Of a stretch of DNA of 64,000 nt, positions 48,990 to 58,797 are shown piece after piece (position 1 is the first letter of the stretch; each line of letters starts with the position of its first letter). The stretch is from Escherichia phage vB_EcoM_Ozark. The position numbers and the translations under genes are program-made. The stretch lies in the sequence record NC_054927.1; one strand, written 5' to 3'. The notes beneath the pieces were generated by a model that worked only from the letters and a program-made list of their open reading frames with translations, made no database searches and had not been told where the DNA came from.

Positions 48990-50008
48990 TAGTTTAGTGC
49001 ATTTAGTGCGTTGTTCAGTTTAGAACGTTGCTTCGTGAGATTTTTGACTTTTTCTTGTGCTTTTTCTAGCATCTTTTCAGCTTCTAACACTTCATTGGTC
49101 GCTTTAACGAGTTCATCATCTACTGCCTTAAGAGACTTCTCAATCGCATCCGCGTGCCATTTTTCAACAGGTTTAAGACTCGGATTTTCAATAGGAAGAA
49201 AATTCGCTTTATTAAATTTCCATGCATCTTTATTACCTGAGCTATACATCCAAAATTTAGGATCGTTTGATGAGCAATTAGATAAATTTAAGTTATCTTG
49301 CACTTCCTGCTTTTTCTCTTGCGTGACTTCGTCTTTTCTCAAAAAATCATATTTAAATGAAACGATCATATCAAGTTCATATGTTGTTGTATGTTCCCAA
49401 TTTCGCTCAAAACGAGGTAAAATCTTAGACTGAACAGCGGCAACAACATCCATATACTTAAATGCTTCTGTCAACTGTGATTTAAGGCATTCACAAATTG
49501 AAAGAGAATTTTTTGTATTAGGTTTAAAGCTAATTCGTGCAGTTCTATTATTTTCTTTTAACGGTCTTACTTCCATCTGAAGAGTATAACCATCAAATTT
49601 CAGATTCTTTAAGTTAATATCAGAGCCTTTTAATCGACTAGCAGTAGACAAAATTTGCTTTAATTGTTTACGAAATAGAGCAATAAATCTCCATTCAATA
49701 CGATAATGATTTGGATTAAAAAATCCTGTTGATAAATCAACCTTACTCTGACCAACGCCTTGAACAAATAGAGGATTTTTATAATCAATAGTTTTACAGA
49801 AATCGGTGAGCTGCTCACGAGCAGTCATTTGTGTAATATATCCCGCTTTACTAAAATGACGTAACCATTCACTGCTATTCATATACTTAAAGTGAATATC
49901 ACGATTAACTTTATCAGGGTCTAAATTATTTTGGCACAAAAATGTCATAACATTACGTGTATAGCTGGCATTACGAACCATATCTTCAATTTGAGAACGA
50001 GTTTTCAT
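48989..50008 (-). CDS. paralog family member with C-terminal coiled coil (339 aa)
   Basis: see 47930..48961. Confidence 0.5.
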   Translation of the reverse strand: MKTRSQIEDMVRNASYTRNVMTFLCQNNLDPDKVNRDIHFKYMNSSEWLRHFSKAGYITQMTAREQLTDFCKTIDYKNPLFVQGVGQSKVDLSTGFFNPNHYRIEWRFIALFRKQLKQILSTASRLKGSDINLKNLKFDGYTLQMEVRPLKENNRTARISFKPNTKNSLSICECLKSQLTEAFKYMDVVAAVQSKILPRFERNWEHTTTYELDMIVSFKYDFLRKDEVTQEKKQEVQDNLNLSNCSSNDPKFWMYSSGNKDAWKFNKANFLPIENPSLKPVEKWHADAIEKSLKAVDDELVKATNEVLEAEKMLEKAQEKVKNLTKQRSKLNNALNALN

Positions 50009-50016
50009 GGTGTTCC

Positions 50017-50925
50017 TTAAGATTTAAGTAAATCAACAATTTTAATTAATTTTTCACGCTCAGATTTAGCTTTACTACTCAATCCAGATAGTCTGAAAAT
50101 TTCATCGTCATACTGTTGAATAGAAATATTCAGCTCTTCAATTTGCTTATTAAAATAATCAATTTGCTCAGAATGTTTTTCATTACTGCGAACTGGTACA
50201 GGTTTTGTAGGCAATTTAGTTAAACTGGATTCATCCGGGCGATAAATTAAAATACAACTTGAACCAATCGGGCATTTAGCACCAGACACATATTCTAATG
50301 TTCCGGCTTCTTTTAAAACTTCAAAAGCTAAACAGAGATGATGCCCCATATTAACATAATCTGTAGAGCGAGCTCTGACGTAATAATCATCGCCGCGAAT
50401 ACTAAATTTAAAGCATTTAAGGTCTTCTGTATTATTGGTCTTAAAAATCATTTGTTTATCTAGACCTTTAGCTAATCGAGCGCCTAATGCTAATAATCGT
50501 CGTTGATTTTCCCACAAATCCGCAATCATTTGATCGAATGATAATTTCGGCATTAGTCGACCATAAAGGTCATATCCTTTATTATAATTGCGAAGGATTT
50601 CACTCGCGTTAATACGAGACAACGCTCCAATTTTATTAAGGGCTTTCATGATGCGATTAGATAAACCCATTCCAGACCCGTTTGTTCGTTGTAAATGTTT
50701 ATCTAATCCAAACCCAATATCAACTTTAAATTTATCTAAAATTTCAGCATGAACATCTCTGTCAATAACATTCAAATCCAAAGTTGGGTTAAATCTATGA
50801 AAAAATTTATCTGGCTCTCCACGACGAAGTATAGTCCATTCATTCAATTTTTTATTAACTAAAGATTTAATTACTGCATTGACATTATTAATTACTACTG
50901 ACATATTTTCCTCACTCAATTTCAA
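50017..50925 (-). CDS. paralog family member with C-terminal coiled coil (302 aa)
   Basis: weak shared blocks; coiled-coil C-terminus. Confidence 0.45.
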   Translation of the reverse strand: MKLSEENMSVVINNVNAVIKSLVNKKLNEWTILRRGEPDKFFHRFNPTLDLNVIDRDVHAEILDKFKVDIGFGLDKHLQRTNGSGMGLSNRIMKALNKIGALSRINASEILRNYNKGYDLYGRLMPKLSFDQMIADLWENQRRLLALGARLAKGLDKQMIFKTNNTEDLKCFKFSIRGDDYYVRARSTDYVNMGHHLCLAFEVLKEAGTLEYVSGAKCPIGSSCILIYRPDESSLTKLPTKPVPVRSNEKHSEQIDYFNKQIEELNISIQQYDDEIFRLSGLSSKAKSEREKLIKIVDLLKS

Positions 50926-51319
50926 TTTTACTAAATATACAGAATAAGATGGAACAGACTATATAAGCACCACACACAGATTGAACTAATACCATTCCAA
51001 AGAACCAAACAATATTATCAAACAATGTCTGTTTTACGTCGAAAGGACGTAAACTTACAGTAATATTATCGCCTTTTTCTATTGATGAATACATCTCTGG
51101 TGAAATATATTCGCTAAATCTATAACCGTCTTTGAGTTCATATACAGCAATAAACGATAAACTAGACCCCTTTCCTTGAGTTCCTGTAAAGGTATTAACT
51201 ACAGTAACATCATAATCTTTATAATGCATATAATCATTAATTGCGTAATAACTATATGCAACTACTACGCACAAACAACATATCAATAAATTCAATCTTT
51301 TAATTATCAACTGTTTCAT
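50912..51319 (-). CDS. membrane protein (135 aa, N- and C-terminal TM helices)
   Basis: hydrophobic segments. Confidence 0.45.
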   Translation of the reverse strand: MKQLIIKRLNLLICCLCVVVAYSYYAINDYMHYKDYDVTVVNTFTGTQGKGSSLSFIAVYELKDGYRFSEYISPEMYSSIEKGDNITVSLRPFDVKQTLFDNIVWFFGMVLVQSVCGAYIVCSILFCIFSKIEIE

Positions 51320-51374
51320 AATAATCTCAATTAAAAGGGCTTAGAACCATTATACCATCCTTGGTATAAAGCGG

Positions 51375-51902
51375 TTATGCGAGTACCGTCTTTAACCGTT
51401 CTTCAAACTTCCGAAGAGTATTTTGGCGTTCAGCTCTTTGCTTTTTGTAAGTTTCAATACGCTCTGAAATGAGAGTGTATCGTTCATTTACTGATTCTTT
51501 CATAAAATCAGGAATTTCACGAGAAGCTTTAATCTCATCAAATTTATCAATAACAGCTTGCTCTTCAGCAATTAAGTTATCATACATCAAAATATCTTTC
51601 TTGATGAACTCAATATCTTCTTGAGTTACACGAGATAATTTAGATGCTTTATCCTTTTTGTACTGTTCGTTAGTATCACGAGACCAGTGTAATGTACGAT
51701 TTTTATTCGTATTCTTGTAAATTTCTACAATACCAATCTCATCGATAATAACGATCCAATTCCAACGAGATTTGTAAATTTGTCCTCCGTCAACCGTGAT
51801 TTCACCTCCGATTGAGATGTCATTAAAGAACTTGCTTTGTGCTTCTGATTTAAATTTACCATCGTTGTAATTTACCAGGTTGAAAATATCTTTAGCGTTC
51901 AT
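51375..51902 (-). CDS. hypothetical protein with C-terminal coiled coil (175 aa)
   Basis: GGAGGA RBS; leader identical to that of 25287..25538. Confidence 0.5.
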   Translation of the reverse strand: MNAKDIFNLVNYNDGKFKSEAQSKFFNDISIGGEITVDGGQIYKSRWNWIVIIDEIGIVEIYKNTNKNRTLHWSRDTNEQYKKDKASKLSRVTQEDIEFIKKDILMYDNLIAEEQAVIDKFDEIKASREIPDFMKESVNERYTLISERIETYKKQRAERQNTLRKFEERLKTVLA

Positions 51903-51930
51903 TTTGTGTTCCTCCGTAGTTGATAGTTGT

Positions 51931-51960
51931 ATAGTACCACAAAGGAACAGTCTTGTAAAC
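51931..51960 (-). promoter_or_regulatory. T4 early-type promoter
   Basis: fwd gtaaac 51955-51960, -10 TACTAT. Confidence 0.55.
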
Positions 51961-51962
51961 CG

Positions 51963-52277
51963 CTAAAAGAAACTTCTTTCACAATTTTTTCCACTGAACC
52001 ACGCGCTCACCGCTTTCTTAGTCTCAGGAGCAGTGTTATCCATAAACCATTCAAAAGCAGCCTTTTTATGATTCTGGAGGGCTTCTCGGGCTTTAATCTG
52101 CTCACGGTCTATTAACACTAACATATGAGCCTTTCTTGTCACCATGGGCTTCTTATGATTTTTTGAATACTCCCAATCATTTGTCCATCGCATCGTTGTT
52201 GCGAACTGAAATACTGCTTCTTTAATTTTAGTTTCGTAAATCTCACGAGCCTTTGAGTATAACATCACTACCTCCAT
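51963..52277 (-). CDS. hypothetical protein (104 aa)
   Basis: ORF. Confidence 0.4.
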   Translation of the reverse strand: MEVVMLYSKAREIYETKIKEAVFQFATTMRWTNDWEYSKNHKKPMVTRKAHMLVLIDREQIKAREALQNHKKAAFEWFMDNTAPETKKAVSAWFSGKNCERSFF

Positions 52278-52366
52278 TTACCAGTTTAATTCTAATCATC
52301 TTTTTGATGGCAGTCCATATAATCTATTTCTGAACTGCCTTTTTGTCATAGAAGGCCTCTTATGAA

Positions 52367-53335
52367 TTATTTCAGAAGAGTAACCTCAGCAATTTCTTCC
52401 CAACCGTTTTTGTCGGTCATAATAAAGTCAGCAAGATAAAGTGCAGTACGCAGTGAAACATTGCGTAAACGATTAACATTGACTTTCATCCATGATAATG
52501 CTTTATAAGTTTCTTCATCAGAAAGACCGCGTTTTTGCATCATGTCAGTTGAAAGAATAACATCTTCAACCCTGACCATAATTTCTTCATTAGTGTGAAC
52601 ACCCAAATCTAAATAAACTGAGCGGGAAACTAATGCTTGTAAATGTGGAGCAAGTTTAGTACCACGATCTAATTCGCGGTCAATATCAACGTTTGTGATA
52701 AAAACAATCGTTCCTTTAAATTCAAACTCACGCTCAATGCCTTTTTCTTCTAAGTAAGAAGATGCAGTGCTCCAGCAGACTTTACGGGTCTCTCCAGTGT
52801 CCAGAGCAGCTTTTAGAAGATTAAGAATGTCCATATCAGAGAAAACATCCACATCATCAATCAAAAGGACAGAATTCTCTTCACGATTATTCCAAAGCTG
52901 TTCATAAAGACCGATACCGGAGATTTTACCGTTAATGCTTTTATATTCAATGTATCCAATATCATTTGCTTTATTTAAAGCTTTATCTAAAGAATACGTT
53001 TTACCAATACCTGCCGCACCAGAGATAATTAATGAACGAATGTTTCCGTTAATAATACCATTCGTCATCATTCCCATAACATTAAATCTTTTATTAATGC
53101 GGGTTTTCATATCTTCATACGATTCTTTAACTTCTTCAACTTTTACACCATCATATGAAATGTCTGATTTGTAAACCCAAACACCGCGACGCTTACCGTC
53201 AATTTCAACAAAAACTTTACCATCTCCTTGTGCATCTACCGGAGCATTATCTGGGAACCATTCACCTAAGAGCTCAAAAGTTCCAGAGATTTCTTTACCG
53301 AAGTAGATACCCTTATTGATAGTTACAGTTTTCAT
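52367..53335 (-). CDS. P-loop ATPase, AAA+-like (322 aa)
   Basis: Walker A SGAAGIGKT, Walker B VLLIDDVD, sensor-1-like VFITN. Confidence 0.6.
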   Translation of the reverse strand: MKTVTINKGIYFGKEISGTFELLGEWFPDNAPVDAQGDGKVFVEIDGKRRGVWVYKSDISYDGVKVEEVKESYEDMKTRINKRFNVMGMMTNGIINGNIRSLIISGAAGIGKTYSLDKALNKANDIGYIEYKSINGKISGIGLYEQLWNNREENSVLLIDDVDVFSDMDILNLLKAALDTGETRKVCWSTASSYLEEKGIEREFEFKGTIVFITNVDIDRELDRGTKLAPHLQALVSRSVYLDLGVHTNEEIMVRVEDVILSTDMMQKRGLSDEETYKALSWMKVNVNRLRNVSLRTALYLADFIMTDKNGWEEIAEVTLLK

Positions 53336-53392
53336 TTTATTCTCCTTTGATTTGATAGGACTACTATAACATAGTCCTATCAGTTTGTATAC

Positions 53393-53593
53393 TTATTTTG
53401 ACATTTCTTCGATGTCACGACGATACCCGTCACGAACTTCACGAAGAGCTTCAAGGCCACACATAGGCTCGATACCTGTAATGTGAACTTGATTAATCTG
53501 ATACTCTACATCTTCTAACTGAGCGAAAACATAACGACGTTCAGCTGCACAACCAGATTTAGCTTTACCGAAACGTTTATTCAAAGTAGTCAT
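53393..53593 (-). CDS. hypothetical protein (66 aa)
   Basis: ORF just downstream of promoter. Confidence 0.4.
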   Translation of the reverse strand: MTTLNKRFGKAKSGCAAERRYVFAQLEDVEYQINQVHITGIEPMCGLEALREVRDGYRRDIEEMSK

Positions 53594-53631
53594 TTTGTAT
53601 CTCCAATTTACTCATTTGTTTTGATAGGTCT

Positions 53632-53661
53632 ATAGTATCAACAACTACAGACCATGTAAAC
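53632..53661 (-). promoter_or_regulatory. T4 early-type promoter with UP element
   Basis: fwd gtaaac 53656-53661, -10 TACTAT. Confidence 0.55.
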
Positions 53662-53692
53662 CGTTTTGTGAAAAATTTTTGAAATAAAAAAA

Positions 53693-53710
53693 GGGAGCCC
53701 GAAGGCTCCC
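53693..53710 (-). terminator. intrinsic terminator (GGGAGCC-UUCG-GGCUCCC then U7)
   Basis: 7-bp GC stem and U-run on minus RNA right after 53713 stop. Confidence 0.7.
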
Positions 53711-53712
53711 TA

Positions 53713-54726
53713 TCATTTATAATAACTTCGGTGGTTTTCAAGATAGACCTTCTCAAGGAAGTCATCCCAGAAACTCATGTCTACTGTTTTAGGCATACCG
53801 TTCTTAGAAGCTTCAGTAGATGCTGCTTCTACTTGATCGACCACATCTTCCAAAAACTCTTGAACTGTTTTAAATGGATGTTTACCCAACTTCACGTCGA
53901 GAATAAATGGAGCATCTTGAAGTGGATAGACTAAGTCACCAGTTTTGTAAATTTCCAATAGTTGGAGTCCACCACGACAAGCATGACTCAAAGCTTTCCA
54001 GTCAATACCTTCATTGGCTTCAGCCTTACGAGCACGTTCACCGTATTCAGCATCTAATTTGTTCAGTGACTGCTTAAGCTCAATAAGAGAAAGCGTTGTC
54101 TGATATTTACGACCCAACACTGTGTAAAACGTCTGTGGGCCTGTTTTCTCATGATTATGGAACACCCATTCACAGAATTCGTTTTCTGGAAGACGATGCT
54201 TAATATCTTCAACTTTAGTACGACGCTGCTTAATGGAACCGTCTTCTTGGTAATCAACCCATTGCTCAGGGATTTGATTAACTACTTTCAATACATCGCG
54301 TAATGCAGCCAAACGAGAACCCTTGACACCGTATTTAGAAGCTTGCTTGCGGACATATCCTAAATAGGATTTCATGTTAGTCGTATAAAAACGAGAACGG
54401 TTGTCTTGAATAAACTTCCACACATCAGGCAAATCAGATTTAACCACTAGTTCAGGTGGAGTGTGAAGCATATCCAATGCTACAGTTTCACCATCTGCTG
54501 CTAATTTAAAGAAATATTTAAGACTGTATAGTTCATGGTCAATATCATCTTTAGTGTTTTTAGATGATGTATTGTTAGTGTTTTTACTCATGTGCTCTTT
54601 GACATTTCCGATAAGAATATCGCGAGCAGGAGGAACAAAGATTTCTTTAAAATCTACATCAGATTCTGGGGTAGAAGTTCCATAAAGATGACTACCAAAA
54701 TAGCTTTTCATTACTGTTTTCATCAT
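53713..54726 (-). CDS. predicted nucleotidyltransferase, Pol-beta superfamily (337 aa)
   Basis: N-terminal FGSHLYGTSTPESDVDF then DIDHE: G[GS]x(n)[DE]h[DE]h signature. Confidence 0.5.
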   Translation of the reverse strand: MMKTVMKSYFGSHLYGTSTPESDVDFKEIFVPPARDILIGNVKEHMSKNTNNTSSKNTKDDIDHELYSLKYFFKLAADGETVALDMLHTPPELVVKSDLPDVWKFIQDNRSRFYTTNMKSYLGYVRKQASKYGVKGSRLAALRDVLKVVNQIPEQWVDYQEDGSIKQRRTKVEDIKHRLPENEFCEWVFHNHEKTGPQTFYTVLGRKYQTTLSLIELKQSLNKLDAEYGERARKAEANEGIDWKALSHACRGGLQLLEIYKTGDLVYPLQDAPFILDVKLGKHPFKTVQEFLEDVVDQVEAASTEASKNGMPKTVDMSFWDDFLEKVYLENHRSYYK

Positions 54727-55184
54727 TCAGCCTTATATTCAATAACAGGACATACTTTAGCTTTACGAGCTTTTAAAAATTCGACGATAATCGATTTCTT
54801 AGGTTGAATAGGAGGTAAACCTTTATACGCCCTATCAATATTTTCTACGTGTAAAGCATAATCCTTTTTCCATTTATAATCTTTATATTTTTCACGCAAA
54901 TGTGCAGGAATAACAAATGAACCGATAATAAGTAAAACAACCAAAAGCGCAAGTATAAATGCTGATGGAAGCAAAGTCCATAAACTACCAAAAATAAGCC
55001 AACGTTGTAGGCTTTCTGCACAAATAATTGTTAGCCCTACGAGTATAGCACATCCAAAAATAGAAACGAAAAATGTAGGAATGGCAATAGACCAAAAATA
55101 TGCGCATAGTGTCTTAGGTCGTTGCCATTCATCGTTAAACAATTTGAATAATTTATAGTGCCAAGAGTTTTCATTAATAATCAT
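54723..55184 (-). CDS. integral membrane protein (153 aa, about 3 TM helices)
   Basis: hydrophobic helices; stop overlaps NTase ATG (ATGA). Confidence 0.5.
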   Translation of the reverse strand: MIINENSWHYKLFKLFNDEWQRPKTLCAYFWSIAIPTFFVSIFGCAILVGLTIICAESLQRWLIFGSLWTLLPSAFILALLVVLLIIGSFVIPAHLREKYKDYKWKKDYALHVENIDRAYKGLPPIQPKKSIIVEFLKARKAKVCPVIEYKAE

Positions 55185-55186
55185 AA

Positions 55187-55708
55187 TTATCCTTTCATTG
55201 AAGGCGTAACAGTTGTTAAATACTTAATCATAGCTTCAGCTTCTGATTTTGATAATGAAATTTCTCCATTGTTTTGACGAATAGAAATAAAATCCGGATG
55301 ACGGTCACCACCAGCTTTTAAAACACACATATAAGTATCAACTTCATCTTCAATATTTGAAATGATTGAAGCAGTTCCACATGAATGCGGTTTTTGATAA
55401 ATCAATGCAGCTTTTCTTCCGCCATTTGACTGTTCATAAACTTTTAATACATCAAACAAATCACTTCTTTTATCAATAGCTAAAATGTTATTTTCATCTT
55501 CAATGTTAAATCCTTCGGATACTTCATAAAGTGTCACCCATAAATCGCCAATATCAATAACAGCGTTCACTTTTCCATGACTTTCAAGAGCATGACAAAT
55601 TTTCTTGATTTCGTCATAACTCATTTTAATAATATCATCTCCTTGAATAAGAAAGATGTCATTTTTAAATTCAACACGAATTAAACCACTTCCACTTGAA
55701 ATAAACAT
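55187..55708 (-). CDS. hypothetical protein, tandem paralog A (173 aa)
   Basis: C-terminal SKSEAEAMIKYLTTVTPSM resembles neighbour. Confidence 0.45.
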   Translation of the reverse strand: MFISSGSGLIRVEFKNDIFLIQGDDIIKMSYDEIKKICHALESHGKVNAVIDIGDLWVTLYEVSEGFNIEDENNILAIDKRSDLFDVLKVYEQSNGGRKAALIYQKPHSCGTASIISNIEDEVDTYMCVLKAGGDRHPDFISIRQNNGEISLSKSEAEAMIKYLTTVTPSMKG

Positions 55709-55714
55709 ATTTCC

Positions 55715-56260
55715 TCACTTTGAAATCATAGTTGGAATAACAGAATCAAGATAAGTCTTTAGTGCAATAGCTTCGTCTTTGGTAAATGTGACAATATGTG
55801 CTCGAAAATCATCAATTTGACGAATAGTTAAGACATCTCCATCTTCATAACATTTTGATACGTTTAAAACAGTTTCATCATTCTGATTGCAAGCGTTAGT
55901 AATAATAGCATTGCAATTTTTAAACCATTTTAAACTATGTTTTCTTTCATTAGAATAATAAAAATATTTAATCTTATCTATAAAACTATCCCAATGGATA
56001 ACTGATAAGCATATTGACTCGCTTTCAATATTAAATCCTGGGCATGAAGAATAAAAATGAATTTTATGCTCATCATTAATGCTTACAATTTTATCAGTAT
56101 AAGGATTTTCAATTTTGGTTAAATGAATGATTTCACTAGGCGTAAAATACAGCATATCGTCTTCTTGTGTCAAACGATACATATTATTTACTTTTTCTAT
56201 AGCTAATTCACCAAAAAGTGAACTAACTTCTAATACTAATCGTTTCGCCGCTACCGTCAT
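55715..56260 (-). CDS. hypothetical protein, tandem paralog B (181 aa)
   Basis: C-terminal TKDEAIALKTYLDSVIPTM; GFNIE block shared. Confidence 0.45.
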   Translation of the reverse strand: MTVAAKRLVLEVSSLFGELAIEKVNNMYRLTQEDDMLYFTPSEIIHLTKIENPYTDKIVSINDEHKIHFYSSCPGFNIESESICLSVIHWDSFIDKIKYFYYSNERKHSLKWFKNCNAIITNACNQNDETVLNVSKCYEDGDVLTIRQIDDFRAHIVTFTKDEAIALKTYLDSVIPTMISK

Positions 56261-56392
56261 TACATACTCCTCTGAATCATATCAATAATGTTGTTCACCA
56301 GATTATAAGTAAACATTGGGTAATTATATTGAATCATTACATACACAACAAACAAAACTTTCATTCTCTTCTCCTTGGCAGTTGACAAGATT

Positions 56393-56422
56393 ACTATACC
56401 ATAACCTTGCCAACTTGTAAAC
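56393..56422 (-). promoter_or_regulatory. T4 early-type promoter
   Basis: fwd gtaaac 56417-56422, -10 TATAGT. Confidence 0.45.
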
Positions 56423-56587
56423 CATTAAATGACGTTTTCAATAAAATTCTGAAGCTTTGTGTGAGCATCAACCATGATTTTCATTTCTTCTTTTGCGAAA
56501 GCTGTACCTCTTTCCCGAGCAGAATACTCATAGTCAGAAACTGCATTAGCATATTCTTCAATTAGCTTCATTAAAAACATCTGCTTT

Positions 56588-56782
56588 TCAGTTTTCATTA
56601 TTCCACCTAATCATTTCAAGATATTGAACTAACTTAGCTTTGGATTTATCCAAATCTCTTTTAGCTGCTTCTATACCGTCGTATGAATATCCTTCACAAT
56701 GCTCAACTGCTAATTGATATGAATCTATTTCAATATCACGTGCTAATTTAATGATTTTTTCAAACTGTTCACGTGTTAGCAT
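56588..56782 (-). CDS. hypothetical protein (64 aa)
   Basis: ORF. Confidence 0.4.
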   Translation of the reverse strand: MLTREQFEKIIKLARDIEIDSYQLAVEHCEGYSYDGIEAAKRDLDKSKAKLVQYLEMIRWNNEN

Positions 56783-56784
56783 AA

Positions 56785-56988
56785 TTAAACTCTCGTATTA
56801 TGATCGATAATTTCATCAAGAAACATATCTAACGCTTCTAAAGCATTATCAACTTTAGCTTCAAGTTCTTCAATACCTTTATTTGCAATGCCTGACGAAA
56901 ACCAAGCAAAGTCACTAAATTCCTCATCTGCTTTGCGAATTAAAGCTACCAATTCCTTAATTTTATCCGCTTGTTCGATACTAATCAT
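56785..56988 (-). CDS. hypothetical protein (67 aa)
   Basis: start set to ATG 56988 (GGTGGA RBS, TAATG overlap with upstream stop). Confidence 0.4.
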   Translation of the reverse strand: MISIEQADKIKELVALIRKADEEFSDFAWFSSGIANKGIEELEAKVDNALEALDMFLDEIIDHNTRV

Positions 56989-57176
56989 TATTCCACCACA
57001 TATGAAAGAGAGAATATTGCACACGCCATGTGAGTTGCAACTTCATCACACATATTATAACGTTTCTTAAGAAGTTCTACAAGTTCTTCACTAGTAACTT
57101 CATCCATGTCGACGAAAAAATCACCATTAATGATGACGTAGATATTTCCTTCTTGATTGAGTGCTTCAATTTTCAT
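56988..57176 (-). CDS. hypothetical protein (62 aa)
   Basis: start set to ATG 57176 (GAGGAG RBS) downstream of promoter. Confidence 0.4.
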
Positions 57177-57204
57177 GATGTTCTCCTCTTTATCTGATAG
57201 TTGT

Positions 57205-57234
57205 ATAGTACCACAGCTCAAACGGAAAGTAAAC
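57205..57234 (-). promoter_or_regulatory. T4 early-type promoter
   Basis: fwd gtaaac 57229-57234, -10 TACTAT. Confidence 0.5.
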
Positions 57235-57249
57235 CGGTAAAATGAAAAA

Positions 57250-57267
57250 AGTCTCCCGAAGGAGACT
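57250..57267 (-). terminator. intrinsic terminator (AGUCUCC-UUCG-GGAGACU then U6)
   Basis: 7-bp stem and U-run after 57272 stop. Confidence 0.65.
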
Positions 57268-57271
57268 AATG

Positions 57272-57658
57272 TTATTCGAGGGAAAGAAGATACTTACTCT
57301 GATAAAACATTCCAGTAATATCATCTATCGTGCTTTGGATGGCTGGAGGCATTTCTTTATAAATGCTGTTAGATTGGTCTAGTATGCGATCAATCATTTT
57401 AATTGTGTCGGTAGGAAGTTTACTGGCATCTGGAATTGAAGGTGTGTATTTTCTACCAGAATACCCCAAATATTGCTCACCAAATTTATCAATCAAATCT
57501 GGCAACTCGGAGAAAATAAAATCGTATGCTTTGTGTCTAGCATAATTTTTAGTTTCAAAATGTGCAGAATGAAAATAAGCTTGTGCAGCCATTAATAAAC
57601 CTAAGTATTCATCTGCCTTTGAAGGTTTTCCACTTTGTGAAAAGTCGCTGAATTTCAT
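57272..57658 (-). CDS. hypothetical protein (rI.1 position), 128 aa
   Basis: ORF overlapping rI stop. Confidence 0.45.
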
Positions 57659-57948
57659 TCAGTCTCCAATTTAATGTTCATAATTCTAGCGTATGATTGT
57701 GCCATCTCCGCGCCTCGTTCTATACATTCAAAATCAGAAGAGCACGGGTCATTTTTATAGGTCGTTCGCATAAAACTATAGAACTGTTCAGATGATTCTA
57801 CGCTTTTATTTTCAAAAAGCATATAAACATGTCTAATGCCAGATTCCATAAATTTATCAAAATGAGGATCGACATTTGCTTCAATCGGTGGAGATAAAGC
57901 AAACGCTAATCCTAGCATGGCAAATAGTGCCGTTGCTTTTAAGGCCAT
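57655..57948 (-). CDS. rI: lysis inhibition regulator RI (periplasmic, 97 aa)
   Basis: MALKATALFAMLG signal anchor; matches recalled T4 RI. Confidence 0.8.
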   Translation of the reverse strand: MALKATALFAMLGLAFALSPPIEANVDPHFDKFMESGIRHVYMLFENKSVESSEQFYSFMRTTYKNDPCSSDFECIERGAEMAQSYARIMNIKLETE

Positions 57949-57960
57949 AAAGGCCTCCTA

Positions 57961-58173
57961 TCATTTTTGTCCTGTATTTACTTTATGCCGATGCACGGCC
58001 TTAACTTTATCAAGGTATTTTTCAAAATTTCGCAATCTAGTATAGTCTGCCGGAGATTGGTTGAGTGATACTTCTCGACGCAAAGCTGAAATGATATTTC
58101 CAACTTCCCTACGAATTTCATCTAATTGAAGAACAGTAAGATTGCGAAGTTGCTTTTCAGTTAATTGTAGCAT
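57961..58173 (-). CDS. hypothetical protein (70 aa)
   Basis: ORF between rI and tk. Confidence 0.4.
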
Positions 58174-58198
58174 ATATACCCCTTTAGTTAGATAAACC

Positions 58199-58206
58199 TA
58201 TTTATA
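58199..58206 (-). promoter_or_regulatory. late promoter TATAAATA
   Basis: fwd tatttata 58199-58206 between tk and the 70-aa gene. Confidence 0.45.
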
Positions 58207-58215
58207 ACTTTTGCA

Positions 58216-58797
58216 CTAACCGAGCTTTTTAGTTAATCCATTCCAATGTTTTCTGCACAAAGAAACATAAATTTCATCACCAATACAGATTTGATTACCT
58301 TCTTTAACTGGTGTTCCATCTTCCATTAATCGAGCTGTCATAATAGCTTTTTTACCACAATGACAAACTGCTTTTAGTTCAATAAGTTTATCTGCAATCG
58401 CCAAAAGTTCTTTAGAACCTTCAAATAATTTTCCAGCGAAATCAGTCCTTAGCCCATAAGCCATAACAGGAACATTATATGTATCAACAATTCGGCTTAA
58501 TTGATGCACCTGTTCAGTTTTTAAAAACTGAGCTTCATCTACAAATACACAATGAATATCTTTTTGTGCTTCAGCCCATTTATAGAATTCAAAAATATCC
58601 ATATCATCCGTAATAATATTCGCTTCCTGTTTAATTCCAATGCGAGAAACGACTTCACAGACAGAATCGCGAGTATCAATAGCAGGCTTAAGAACTAATA
58701 CACCCATTCCGCGTTCTTTATAATTATGCGCAGCAGTCAAAAGAGAAGCAGATTTTCCAGCATTCATTGCTGCATAAGTAAAAATTAAACTCGCCAT
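58216..58797 (-). CDS. tk: thymidine kinase (193 aa)
   Basis: P-loop AMNAGKS; C-terminal Cys zinc ribbon. Confidence 0.9.
   Translation of the reverse strand: MASLIFTYAAMNAGKSASLLTAAHNYKERGMGVLVLKPAIDTRDSVCEVVSRIGIKQEANIITDDMDIFEFYKWAEAQKDIHCVFVDEAQFLKTEQVHQLSRIVDTYNVPVMAYGLRTDFAGKLFEGSKELLAIADKLIELKAVCHCGKKAIMTARLMEDGTPVKEGNQICIGDEIYVSLCRKHWNGLTKKLG

Follow-up and report, generated by a model that had tools for sequence, protein, structure and literature searches.

Two RlaP proteins from Pseudomonas, PfRlaP and PaRlaP, add one or two nucleoside monophosphates to the 3′-OH ends of RNA (2025 preprint, PMC12776372). Their preferred substrate is the broken end in a mimic of a tRNA break, and Mn2+ is their preferred metal ion; they are inactive on DNA and on protein, and partly restore aminoacylation to a tRNA that has lost a nucleotide from the anticodon loop. 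The authors proposed that RlaP counters nucleotide-excising ribotoxins such as RloC; the 3′-OH product suits 5′-phosphate ligases (PMC12776372). A comparative study of jumbo phages also predicted that phage RlaPs restore lost nucleotides ahead of ligation (PMC7824862), and NrdC.11 of phage T4 has been named as an RlaP, lying in a separate cluster (cluster 5) of the similarity network (PMC12776372). Here we analyse the nrdC.11 gene of Escherichia phage vB_EcoM_Ozark (NC_054927.1) and its neighbours, at positions 52367-56260 of a 64,000-nucleotide stretch of DNA (the window). We consider it probable that the region comprises a predicted RNA-end repair enzyme acting in counter-defence, NrdC.11, together with accessory genes that are unrelated to it. 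This is a kind of system that is already known.

The phage is a Tequatrovirus of the T2-like type; the region corresponds to the mobD.1 / nrdC.11 / nrdC.10 segment of T4. Several hundred Tequatrovirus genomes match it at 96-99.9% identity, the top match being Escherichia phage A6-6. The nucleotidyltransferase (NTase) of 337 amino acids (aa) shares 99% identity with the T2 cluster and 98% with T4 NrdC.11 (NP_049709). A sequence-only reading of the window had placed these genes in the nrdC-tk region and had raised the possibility that they are T4 nrdC.x orthologues. Synteny with T4 bears out the placement, and the genes are indeed orthologues of T4 nrdC.x and mobD.x genes. Annotation of nrdC.11 as an NTase (COG3541) and of nrdC.10 as an AAA protein dates from 2006 (PMC1524935); we found no functional study of nrdC.10, nrdC.11, mobD.1 or y05I in the literature. 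Mislabels derived from gene names are common in public annotations of the homologous region. Thus NrdC.10 and NrdC.11 are annotated as 'thioredoxin', mobD.1 and mobD.4 as 'molybdopterin-guanine dinucleotide biosynthesis protein MobD', and one NTase as 'HNH homing endonuclease'. T4 nrdC.8, the orthologue of which lies at 51375-51902 of the window, was treated as a 'nucleotide reductase' in a 2026 paper (PMC13275509).

The NTase begins with MMKTVMKSY, and FGSHLYGTSTPESDVDF comprises residues 10-26. Here G11 and S12 are followed by ten residues and then by D23-V-D25-F, fitting the pattern hG[GS]x9-13Dh[DE]h. The protein had been said to start with this motif; the motif is present and near the start, but not at it. 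The sequence DDIDHE follows at residues 60-65, and on profile-profile alignment (hhalign, covering residues 3-90) D63 is matched to the third aspartate of canonical RlaP, which is invariant there. The Pfam family PF10127 (RlaP, i.e. the 'RNA repair pathway DNA polymerase beta family' in the Pfam description) is matched over residues 7-135 with E = 3.1e-11 and a score of 43.9 bits. The curated cut-off is 23, so that the motif is not a chance match. Note that the match covers only positions 23-142 of the 249 of the model.

Searching 1.84 billion representatives with HMMER gave 3508 relatives of the NTase, 832 of them at E ≤ 1e-30. PF10127 is matched by 122 of 123 relatives that are 34-58% identical to the query, while Pfam models of the CD-NTases (cGAS/DncV-like nucleotidyltransferases), OAS and Mab-21 are matched by none of the 123. 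The NTase itself has no CD-NTase, OAS, SMODS or Mab-21 match in Pfam, nor any match in PADLOC (both at E ≤ 0.1). G11 and S12 are invariant among the 123 relatives, and D23, D25, D61 and D63 are each kept in at least 90% of them; D23, D25 and D63 are the predicted catalytic residues. With a PF10127 match above the cut-off and a conserved motif, the earlier assignment of the 337-aa protein to the Pol-beta superfamily of NTases holds good. On these profile matches the enzyme is placed in the RlaP RNA-repair family, and not with the CD-NTases, OAS or Cid1. Assignment as an antitoxin of the MntA type was considered and rejected, the NCBIfam score being 13 bits where the cut-off is 60.

The C-terminal ~200 residues have invariant positions of their own across the relatives (Y132, K244, H248, R251 and P268). 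Since this part of the protein also shows no detectable similarity to the canonical RlaPs, NrdC.11 is assigned by sequence to a distinct 'long' RlaP subfamily, in agreement with the separate cluster 5 in which T4 NrdC.11 was placed (PMC12776372). The crystal structure of PfRlaP contains a C-terminal helical domain, the terminal helix of which packs on the NTase domain and forms the substrate cleft (PMC12776372). The C-terminal half of NrdC.11 is all-helical in a low-confidence predicted model, with a predicted local distance difference test (pLDDT) score of 53.9. Foldseek found no match to this model at E ≤ 0.001, and sequence and profile searches of PDB chains with the NTase gave no usable match.

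Gene neighbourhoods were surveyed in one genome per prokaryotic species and in IMG/VR viral contigs; neighbours were clustered and representatives checked against Pfam. The bacterial set, which includes metagenome-assembled genomes (MAGs), comprised 50 loci with a full-length NrdC.11-type relative, and neighbours were counted within four genes. A CCA-adding enzyme (PolyA_pol) was present at 8 of the 50 loci and directly upstream in 7. RtcB was found at 5 loci and a canonical RlaP of 250 aa also at 5, a metallophosphatase at 4, Ro60/TROVE at 3, and Pnkp (kinase plus HAD phosphatase) at 2, one of these being confirmed by Pfam. At two loci (L056 and L058) the genes for the CCA-adding enzyme, the NTase and RtcB are consecutive on one strand. 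The genes for the CCA-adding enzyme that are immediately beside the NrdC.11-type gene are in Campylobacterota MAGs (L043, L047, L048, L049, L056, L058, L060 and L063).

The viral set comprised 39 loci with an NTase less than 60% identical to that of the window. An HD-domain phosphohydrolase of ~177 aa is encoded beside the NTase at 13 of these loci, all from uncultivated viruses, and is directly downstream in 7. This suggests a two-gene module that would couple end-healing with nucleotide addition. Loci listed with the phosphohydrolase are L143, L145, L148, L150-L153, L157-L159, L163 and L168 (e.g. L159:7247-7780). RtcB is near the NTase at 4 of the 39 loci, and Sinorhizobium phage phiM12 has an RNA ligase gene 3.3 kb upstream of the NTase. 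We also note that three viral contigs (L134:8432-9886, L141 and L149) have a gene for nicotinamide phosphoribosyltransferase three to four genes downstream of the NTase. The accessory region may thereby have a further function in counter-defence, that of NAD salvage.

Among phage records sorted by host name, the counts for the NTase, T4 Rnl1 and Pnk follow each other closely: 286/287/286 for Klebsiella, 83/83/83 for Shigella, 75/77/77 for Aeromonas, 69/69/70 for Acinetobacter and 56/56/56 for Enterobacter. The counts for the AAA+ protein and the membrane protein encoded in the region differ from these. The neighbourhoods and the distribution together support a putative role in RNA-end repair for the NrdC.11 subfamily itself, beyond the canonical RlaPs.

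Comparison with known systems places the protein as follows. PfRlaP and PaRlaP have in common with NrdC.11 the N-terminal Pol-beta core with its G-S...DxD...D motif. Members of the RlaP family and the relatives of NrdC.11 are both associated with RNA-repair genes. NrdC.11 is ~85 residues longer than canonical RlaP, and its C-terminal half is helical in the low-confidence predicted model. The class II CCA-adding enzyme, with its PolyA_pol head and HD domain, is a template-independent NTase that acts on tRNA 3′ ends. It adjoins NrdC.11-type genes at the 8 bacterial loci, and the stand-alone HD proteins beside NrdC.11-type genes at 13 viral loci may be compared with its HD domain. However, the CCA-adding enzyme belongs to PF01743 and NrdC.11 to PF10127, and no similarity was detected beyond the superfamily core. 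CD-NTases, OAS and cGAS belong, like NrdC.11, to the Pol-beta superfamily and have the general G[GS]...DxD motif, but nothing further in common with it. By contrast with the CD-NTase systems, NrdC.11 has no matching profile and no conserved effector gene, and the neighbours of its relatives are RNA-repair genes rather than Cap-type effectors.

The features of the region are collected in Table 1. All the open reading frames (ORFs) between 52367 and 56260 lie on the minus strand, and in the direction of transcription the order is mobD.1, the gene of a 173-aa paralogue, a 153-aa membrane-protein gene, nrdC.11, a terminator and an early-type promoter, a 66-aa ORF, nrdC.10, nrdC.9, and nrdC.8 onward. 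This is colinear with mobD.1...nrdC.10 in the T4 annotation. Where the 173-aa and 153-aa genes stand here, T4 has the HNH homing endonuclease gene mobD; it also lacks the 66-aa ORF and the hairpin ahead of nrdC.10. The two phages agree in the terminator and promoter that separate nrdC.11 from nrdC.10.

Table 1. Features of the nrdC.11 region of phage vB_EcoM_Ozark, in window coordinates
Feature	Coordinates	Strand	Evidence and remarks
Promoter-like site TTTACA-17-TATAGT with TG	56393..56421	-	Top-scoring scan site, 10/12 matches; upstream of mobD.2/mobD.1
mobD.1 orthologue, y05I-like, 181 aa	55715..56260	-	T4_y05I_N E = 5e-38, T4_y05I_C E = 8.5e-21; phrog_1502; T4 position
Second y05I-like paralogue, 173 aa	55187..55708	-	Pfam T4_y05I_N and T4_y05I_C; no T4 counterpart
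Membrane protein, 153 aa	54723..55184	-	Hydropathy; five-genera alignment; phrog_944, phrog_22816
NrdC.11 orthologue, RlaP-family (PF10127) Pol-beta NTase, 337 aa	53713..54726	-	Pfam, T4 identity, relatives, hhalign
Intrinsic terminator, AGGGAGCC-UUCG-GGCUCCCU and U-run, 8-bp GC-rich stem	53692..53711	-	Directly after NTase stop
T4 early-promoter-like element GTTTACA-N17-TGaTACTAT	53632..53660	-	Same element directly ahead of T4 nrdC.10
66-aa ORF, apparent inserted small-gene cassette	53393..53593	-	phrog_6200, E = 1e-35; GGAG Shine-Dalgarno
12-bp hairpin	53352..53383	-	Between 66-aa ORF and nrdC.10 Shine-Dalgarno; -17.7 kcal/mol, z = -5.6 vs shuffles
NrdC.10 orthologue, AAA+ ATPase, 322 aa, N-terminal beta-rich domain at residues 1-62	52367..53335	-	

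The terminator that had been proposed to follow the NTase was detected in a scan that gave 9 terminator-like sites where 3.2 were expected. The T4 sequence is identical here, and the annotation of phage KAW1E185 records this terminator at the corresponding position. The early promoter proposed beyond it fared less evenly; the homologous T4 element precedes nrdC.10, but the consensus scan was not significant (37 sites, 29.4 expected). The division of the region by these elements into two transcription units is upheld. The site upstream of mobD.2 and mobD.1 is a putative promoter, at which the unit terminating behind the NTase gene probably begins. A second terminator with a UUCG loop (AGUCUCC-UUCG-GGAGACU and a U-run) lies at 57250-57267 on the minus strand, just 3′ of rI.-1 (57272-57658); the KAW1E185 annotation has this one too at the corresponding position. 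The sole Rfam match in 50000-58500, to the L20-leader, was below threshold and was rejected. Searches of six proteins of the region in NCBIfam and PADLOC gave scores at noise level only.

The 153-aa membrane protein is hydrophobic over two stretches, each of ~32 residues (26-57 and 62-95), corresponding to two to four transmembrane helices. It had been described as having roughly three; its membrane nature is supported, and the number is approximate. Its cytoplasmic ends are conserved across five genera (NSWH...LCxYFW at the N-terminus and KARKxKxCP at the C-terminus). There is no match in Pfam, and no known sensor domain was found with Pfam, PHROG, NCBIfam or PADLOC. The family forms 23 clusters in 5.8 billion proteins and was found by tblastn in 850 phage records. 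Acinetobacter-type T4-like loci (L131:5193-5651 and L136) encode a 152-aa membrane protein two genes upstream of the NTase that was missed by tblastn and shares with the 153-aa protein an N-terminal SSWHY...LCAY and a C-terminal K-K-IC, so the family is wider in the Tevenvirinae than the 850 records suggest. Shortened versions are annotated in Tequatrovirus, i.e. P0394 (T2, 135 aa), P0396 (116 aa), P0397 (112 aa) and P0398 (99 aa), and could arise from different start calls or from decay of the gene.

At the junction with the NTase gene the minus strand reads ...gct gaa TGA, with the start in aATGATGaaa. Initiation at the first ATG gives an ATGA overlap (54723-54726). With the second ATG, at which the annotated proteins of relatives begin (336 aa), the overlap becomes TGATG. 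The overlap noted by the sequence-only reading is thus real. It is weak evidence of a functional pairing, because start and stop codons overlap at 15 of the 32 gene junctions in the nrdD-tk.4 stretch of T4. The membrane gene is directly upstream of the NTase and overlaps it in Tequatrovirus, Mosigvirus and Dhakavirus. One to three genes intervene in Klebsiella-type phages and in Gelderlandvirus (Salmonella-type) phages, and at the Klebsiella-type locus it is some other downstream gene that the stop codon of the membrane gene overlaps. In T4 the membrane gene has been lost to mobD.

The remaining genes are more briefly described. The two tandem y05I-like proteins were correctly recognized as paralogues (29% identity, E = 2e-10); T4 has mobD.1 alone at this place, followed by mobD. 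The 66-aa ORF and the hairpin look like a cassette inserted between the early promoter and nrdC.10, and there are just 115 nt between nrdC.11 and nrdC.10 in T4. The proposal that NrdC.10 is an AAA+-like ATPase is well supported, as G106, K112 and T113, D160 and D161, and N215 are invariant in 28 homologues. Its predicted model (pLDDT 88.4) has Walker A, Walker B and sensor 1, with an alpha-beta-alpha core and a helical lid. Pfam AAA matches are below their cut-offs, and no single AAA+ clade stands out. Jumbo phages encode the AAA+ core (residues ~74-322, 38-41% identity) without the N-terminal beta domain, examples being Yersinia fHe-Yen9-04 (L009:3986-4768), Xanthomonas XaC1 and Escherichia TH47. 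The gene in fHe-Yen9-04 adjoins an HNH endonuclease gene and several small membrane-protein genes.

A number of observations weigh against assigning a repair function to NrdC.11. The match to the RlaP model is confined to the N-terminal ~130 residues, and the C-terminal ~200 residues have no similarity detectable by hhalign to four canonical RlaPs, using a shallow template alignment. The AlphaFold2 model, with its pLDDT of 53.9, falls below 50 in the catalytic domain; the input was 20 sequences at 78-89% identity. Only record counts link the distribution of the NTase to those of Rnl1 and Pnk, and each of the three genes is near-universal in the family. Moreover nrdC.11 is not beside pnk or rnlA in T4-type genomes, where those genes are encoded elsewhere. 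Because the C-terminal part shows no detectable similarity to that of canonical RlaP, the choice of substrate could differ. It could even be that this domain directs the NTase to a target other than RNA, resulting in protein AMPylation of the MntA type or nucleotidylation of a small molecule, with no RNA repair. Weak sub-threshold matches to NTP_transf_2 and MntA would be consistent with this, as would the divergence of the C-terminal region and the distance from the repair genes in T4-type genomes. Yet full-length relatives with the same C-terminal motifs are repeatedly neighbours of RtcB, the CCA-adding enzyme, Pnkp, Ro60 and HD proteins, the PF10127 match is above threshold in all but one of the 123 relatives, and the characterised RlaPs leave proteins unlabelled (PMC12776372). 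We therefore think a non-RNA target unlikely.

It is a further point against our reading that the adjacency of the membrane and AAA+ genes to the NTase is kept across several genera, and there may be a lineage-specific functional link with one or other of them. The sequence-only reading went further, seeing a coherent cluster centred on the NTase, and likening the NTase and membrane protein to a signalling enzyme and its effector. In such a pair the NTase would make or modify a nucleotide second messenger, with the translationally coupled membrane protein as its effector or partner in signalling or anti-defence. The overlapping codons, their retention in three genera and the conserved cytoplasmic termini are what might be expected of it. 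However, neither the NTase nor its 123 relatives have the profile matches of signalling NTases, T4 keeps the NTase with mobD replacing the membrane gene, and the two genes lie apart in phages of the Klebsiella and Salmonella types, with the membrane gene overlapping another one. The membrane protein is often truncated, and overlapping junctions are frequent throughout this part of T4. Near 40 viral NTases of less than 60% identity neither the membrane protein nor the AAA+ protein was found (tblastn, E ≤ 1e-4), with the exception of L131 (54% NTase identity), which has the AAA+ protein and a weak homologue of the membrane protein; neither recurs at the 50 bacterial loci. A signalling pair is accordingly very improbable, and the membrane protein was rejected as a CBASS-like effector (i.e. 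of cyclic-oligonucleotide-based antiphage signalling), having no known sensor domain and lying apart from the NTase in several genera. There is slightly more to be said for joint action of the NTase and NrdC.10, for example with the ATPase remodelling or delivering an RNA-protein substrate. Both genes are widespread and well conserved, and nrdC.10 is 0.1-2.3 kb downstream in most of the Tevenvirinae whose NTase has 63% identity or more. But a terminator and a separate early promoter stand between them, in T4 also, and in Schizotequatrovirus (KVP40-like) the NTase gene is between rIIB and dda while the ATPase gene is between nrdAB and topoisomerase II. Some Dhakavirus-type genomes (L097, L099 and L130) have the NTase without the ATPase, and in jumbo phages the ATPase core is encoded with no NTase close by. 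No AAA+ neighbour recurs at the 50 bacterial and 39 distant viral loci, and the record counts differ, e.g. 286 for the NTase and 149 for the AAA+ protein in Klebsiella phages. Joint action is thus quite unlikely, and a functional operon of the two genes was rejected. With the AAA+ gene in a separate unit and unlinked in Schizotequatrovirus, and the neighbours restricted in lineage, the evidence is against a cluster, or allows at most one that is specific to the lineage. The membrane protein, NrdC.10, the 66-aa ORF and the pair of y05I-like paralogues probably do not form one machine with the NTase. They are probably separate accessory genes that are kept together by the synteny of the Tevenvirinae, in a region under constant remodelling by insertion of small genes and homing endonucleases.

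We return to NrdC.11 as a predicted RNA-end repair enzyme. T4 Rnl1 and Rnl2 are 5′-phosphate ligases, and NrdC.11 would provide the step missing from the Pnk/Rnl1 pathway of tRNA repair in the T-even phages. Pnk would remove the 2′,3′-cyclic phosphate and phosphorylate the 5′ end. NrdC.11 would then restore the nucleotide excised by a host anticodon nuclease such as RloC, after which RNA ligase would seal the break. If its enzymatic activity, substrate and role in infection are as we infer, restoration of a nucleotide within this pathway would make NrdC.11 an accessory enzyme of counter-defence. Deletion of the nrdC.11-mobD.3 segment of T4 is tolerated in the laboratory (PMC9825161), as expected for a gene of this type. 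More speculatively, the long RlaPs as a group might provide the nucleotide-restoring step that T-even tRNA repair lacks, and so evade excising nucleases of the RloC type or nucleases that trim the 3′ ends of tRNA; the membrane protein encoded upstream in the enterobacterial T4-like phages could then be a lineage-specific partner or regulator. We offer this tentatively.

The practical value of the analysis is corrective. The genes are the known T4 orthologues nrdC.11, nrdC.10 and mobD.1, and there is no sign of a new system of signalling and effector. The NTase now has a named family, the chemistry of which has been demonstrated on bacterial members. If the proposed role is true, NrdC.11 would complete the classical Pnk/Rnl1 repair pathway of T4, the phage in which RNA repair was discovered, against nucleases that remove nucleotides.

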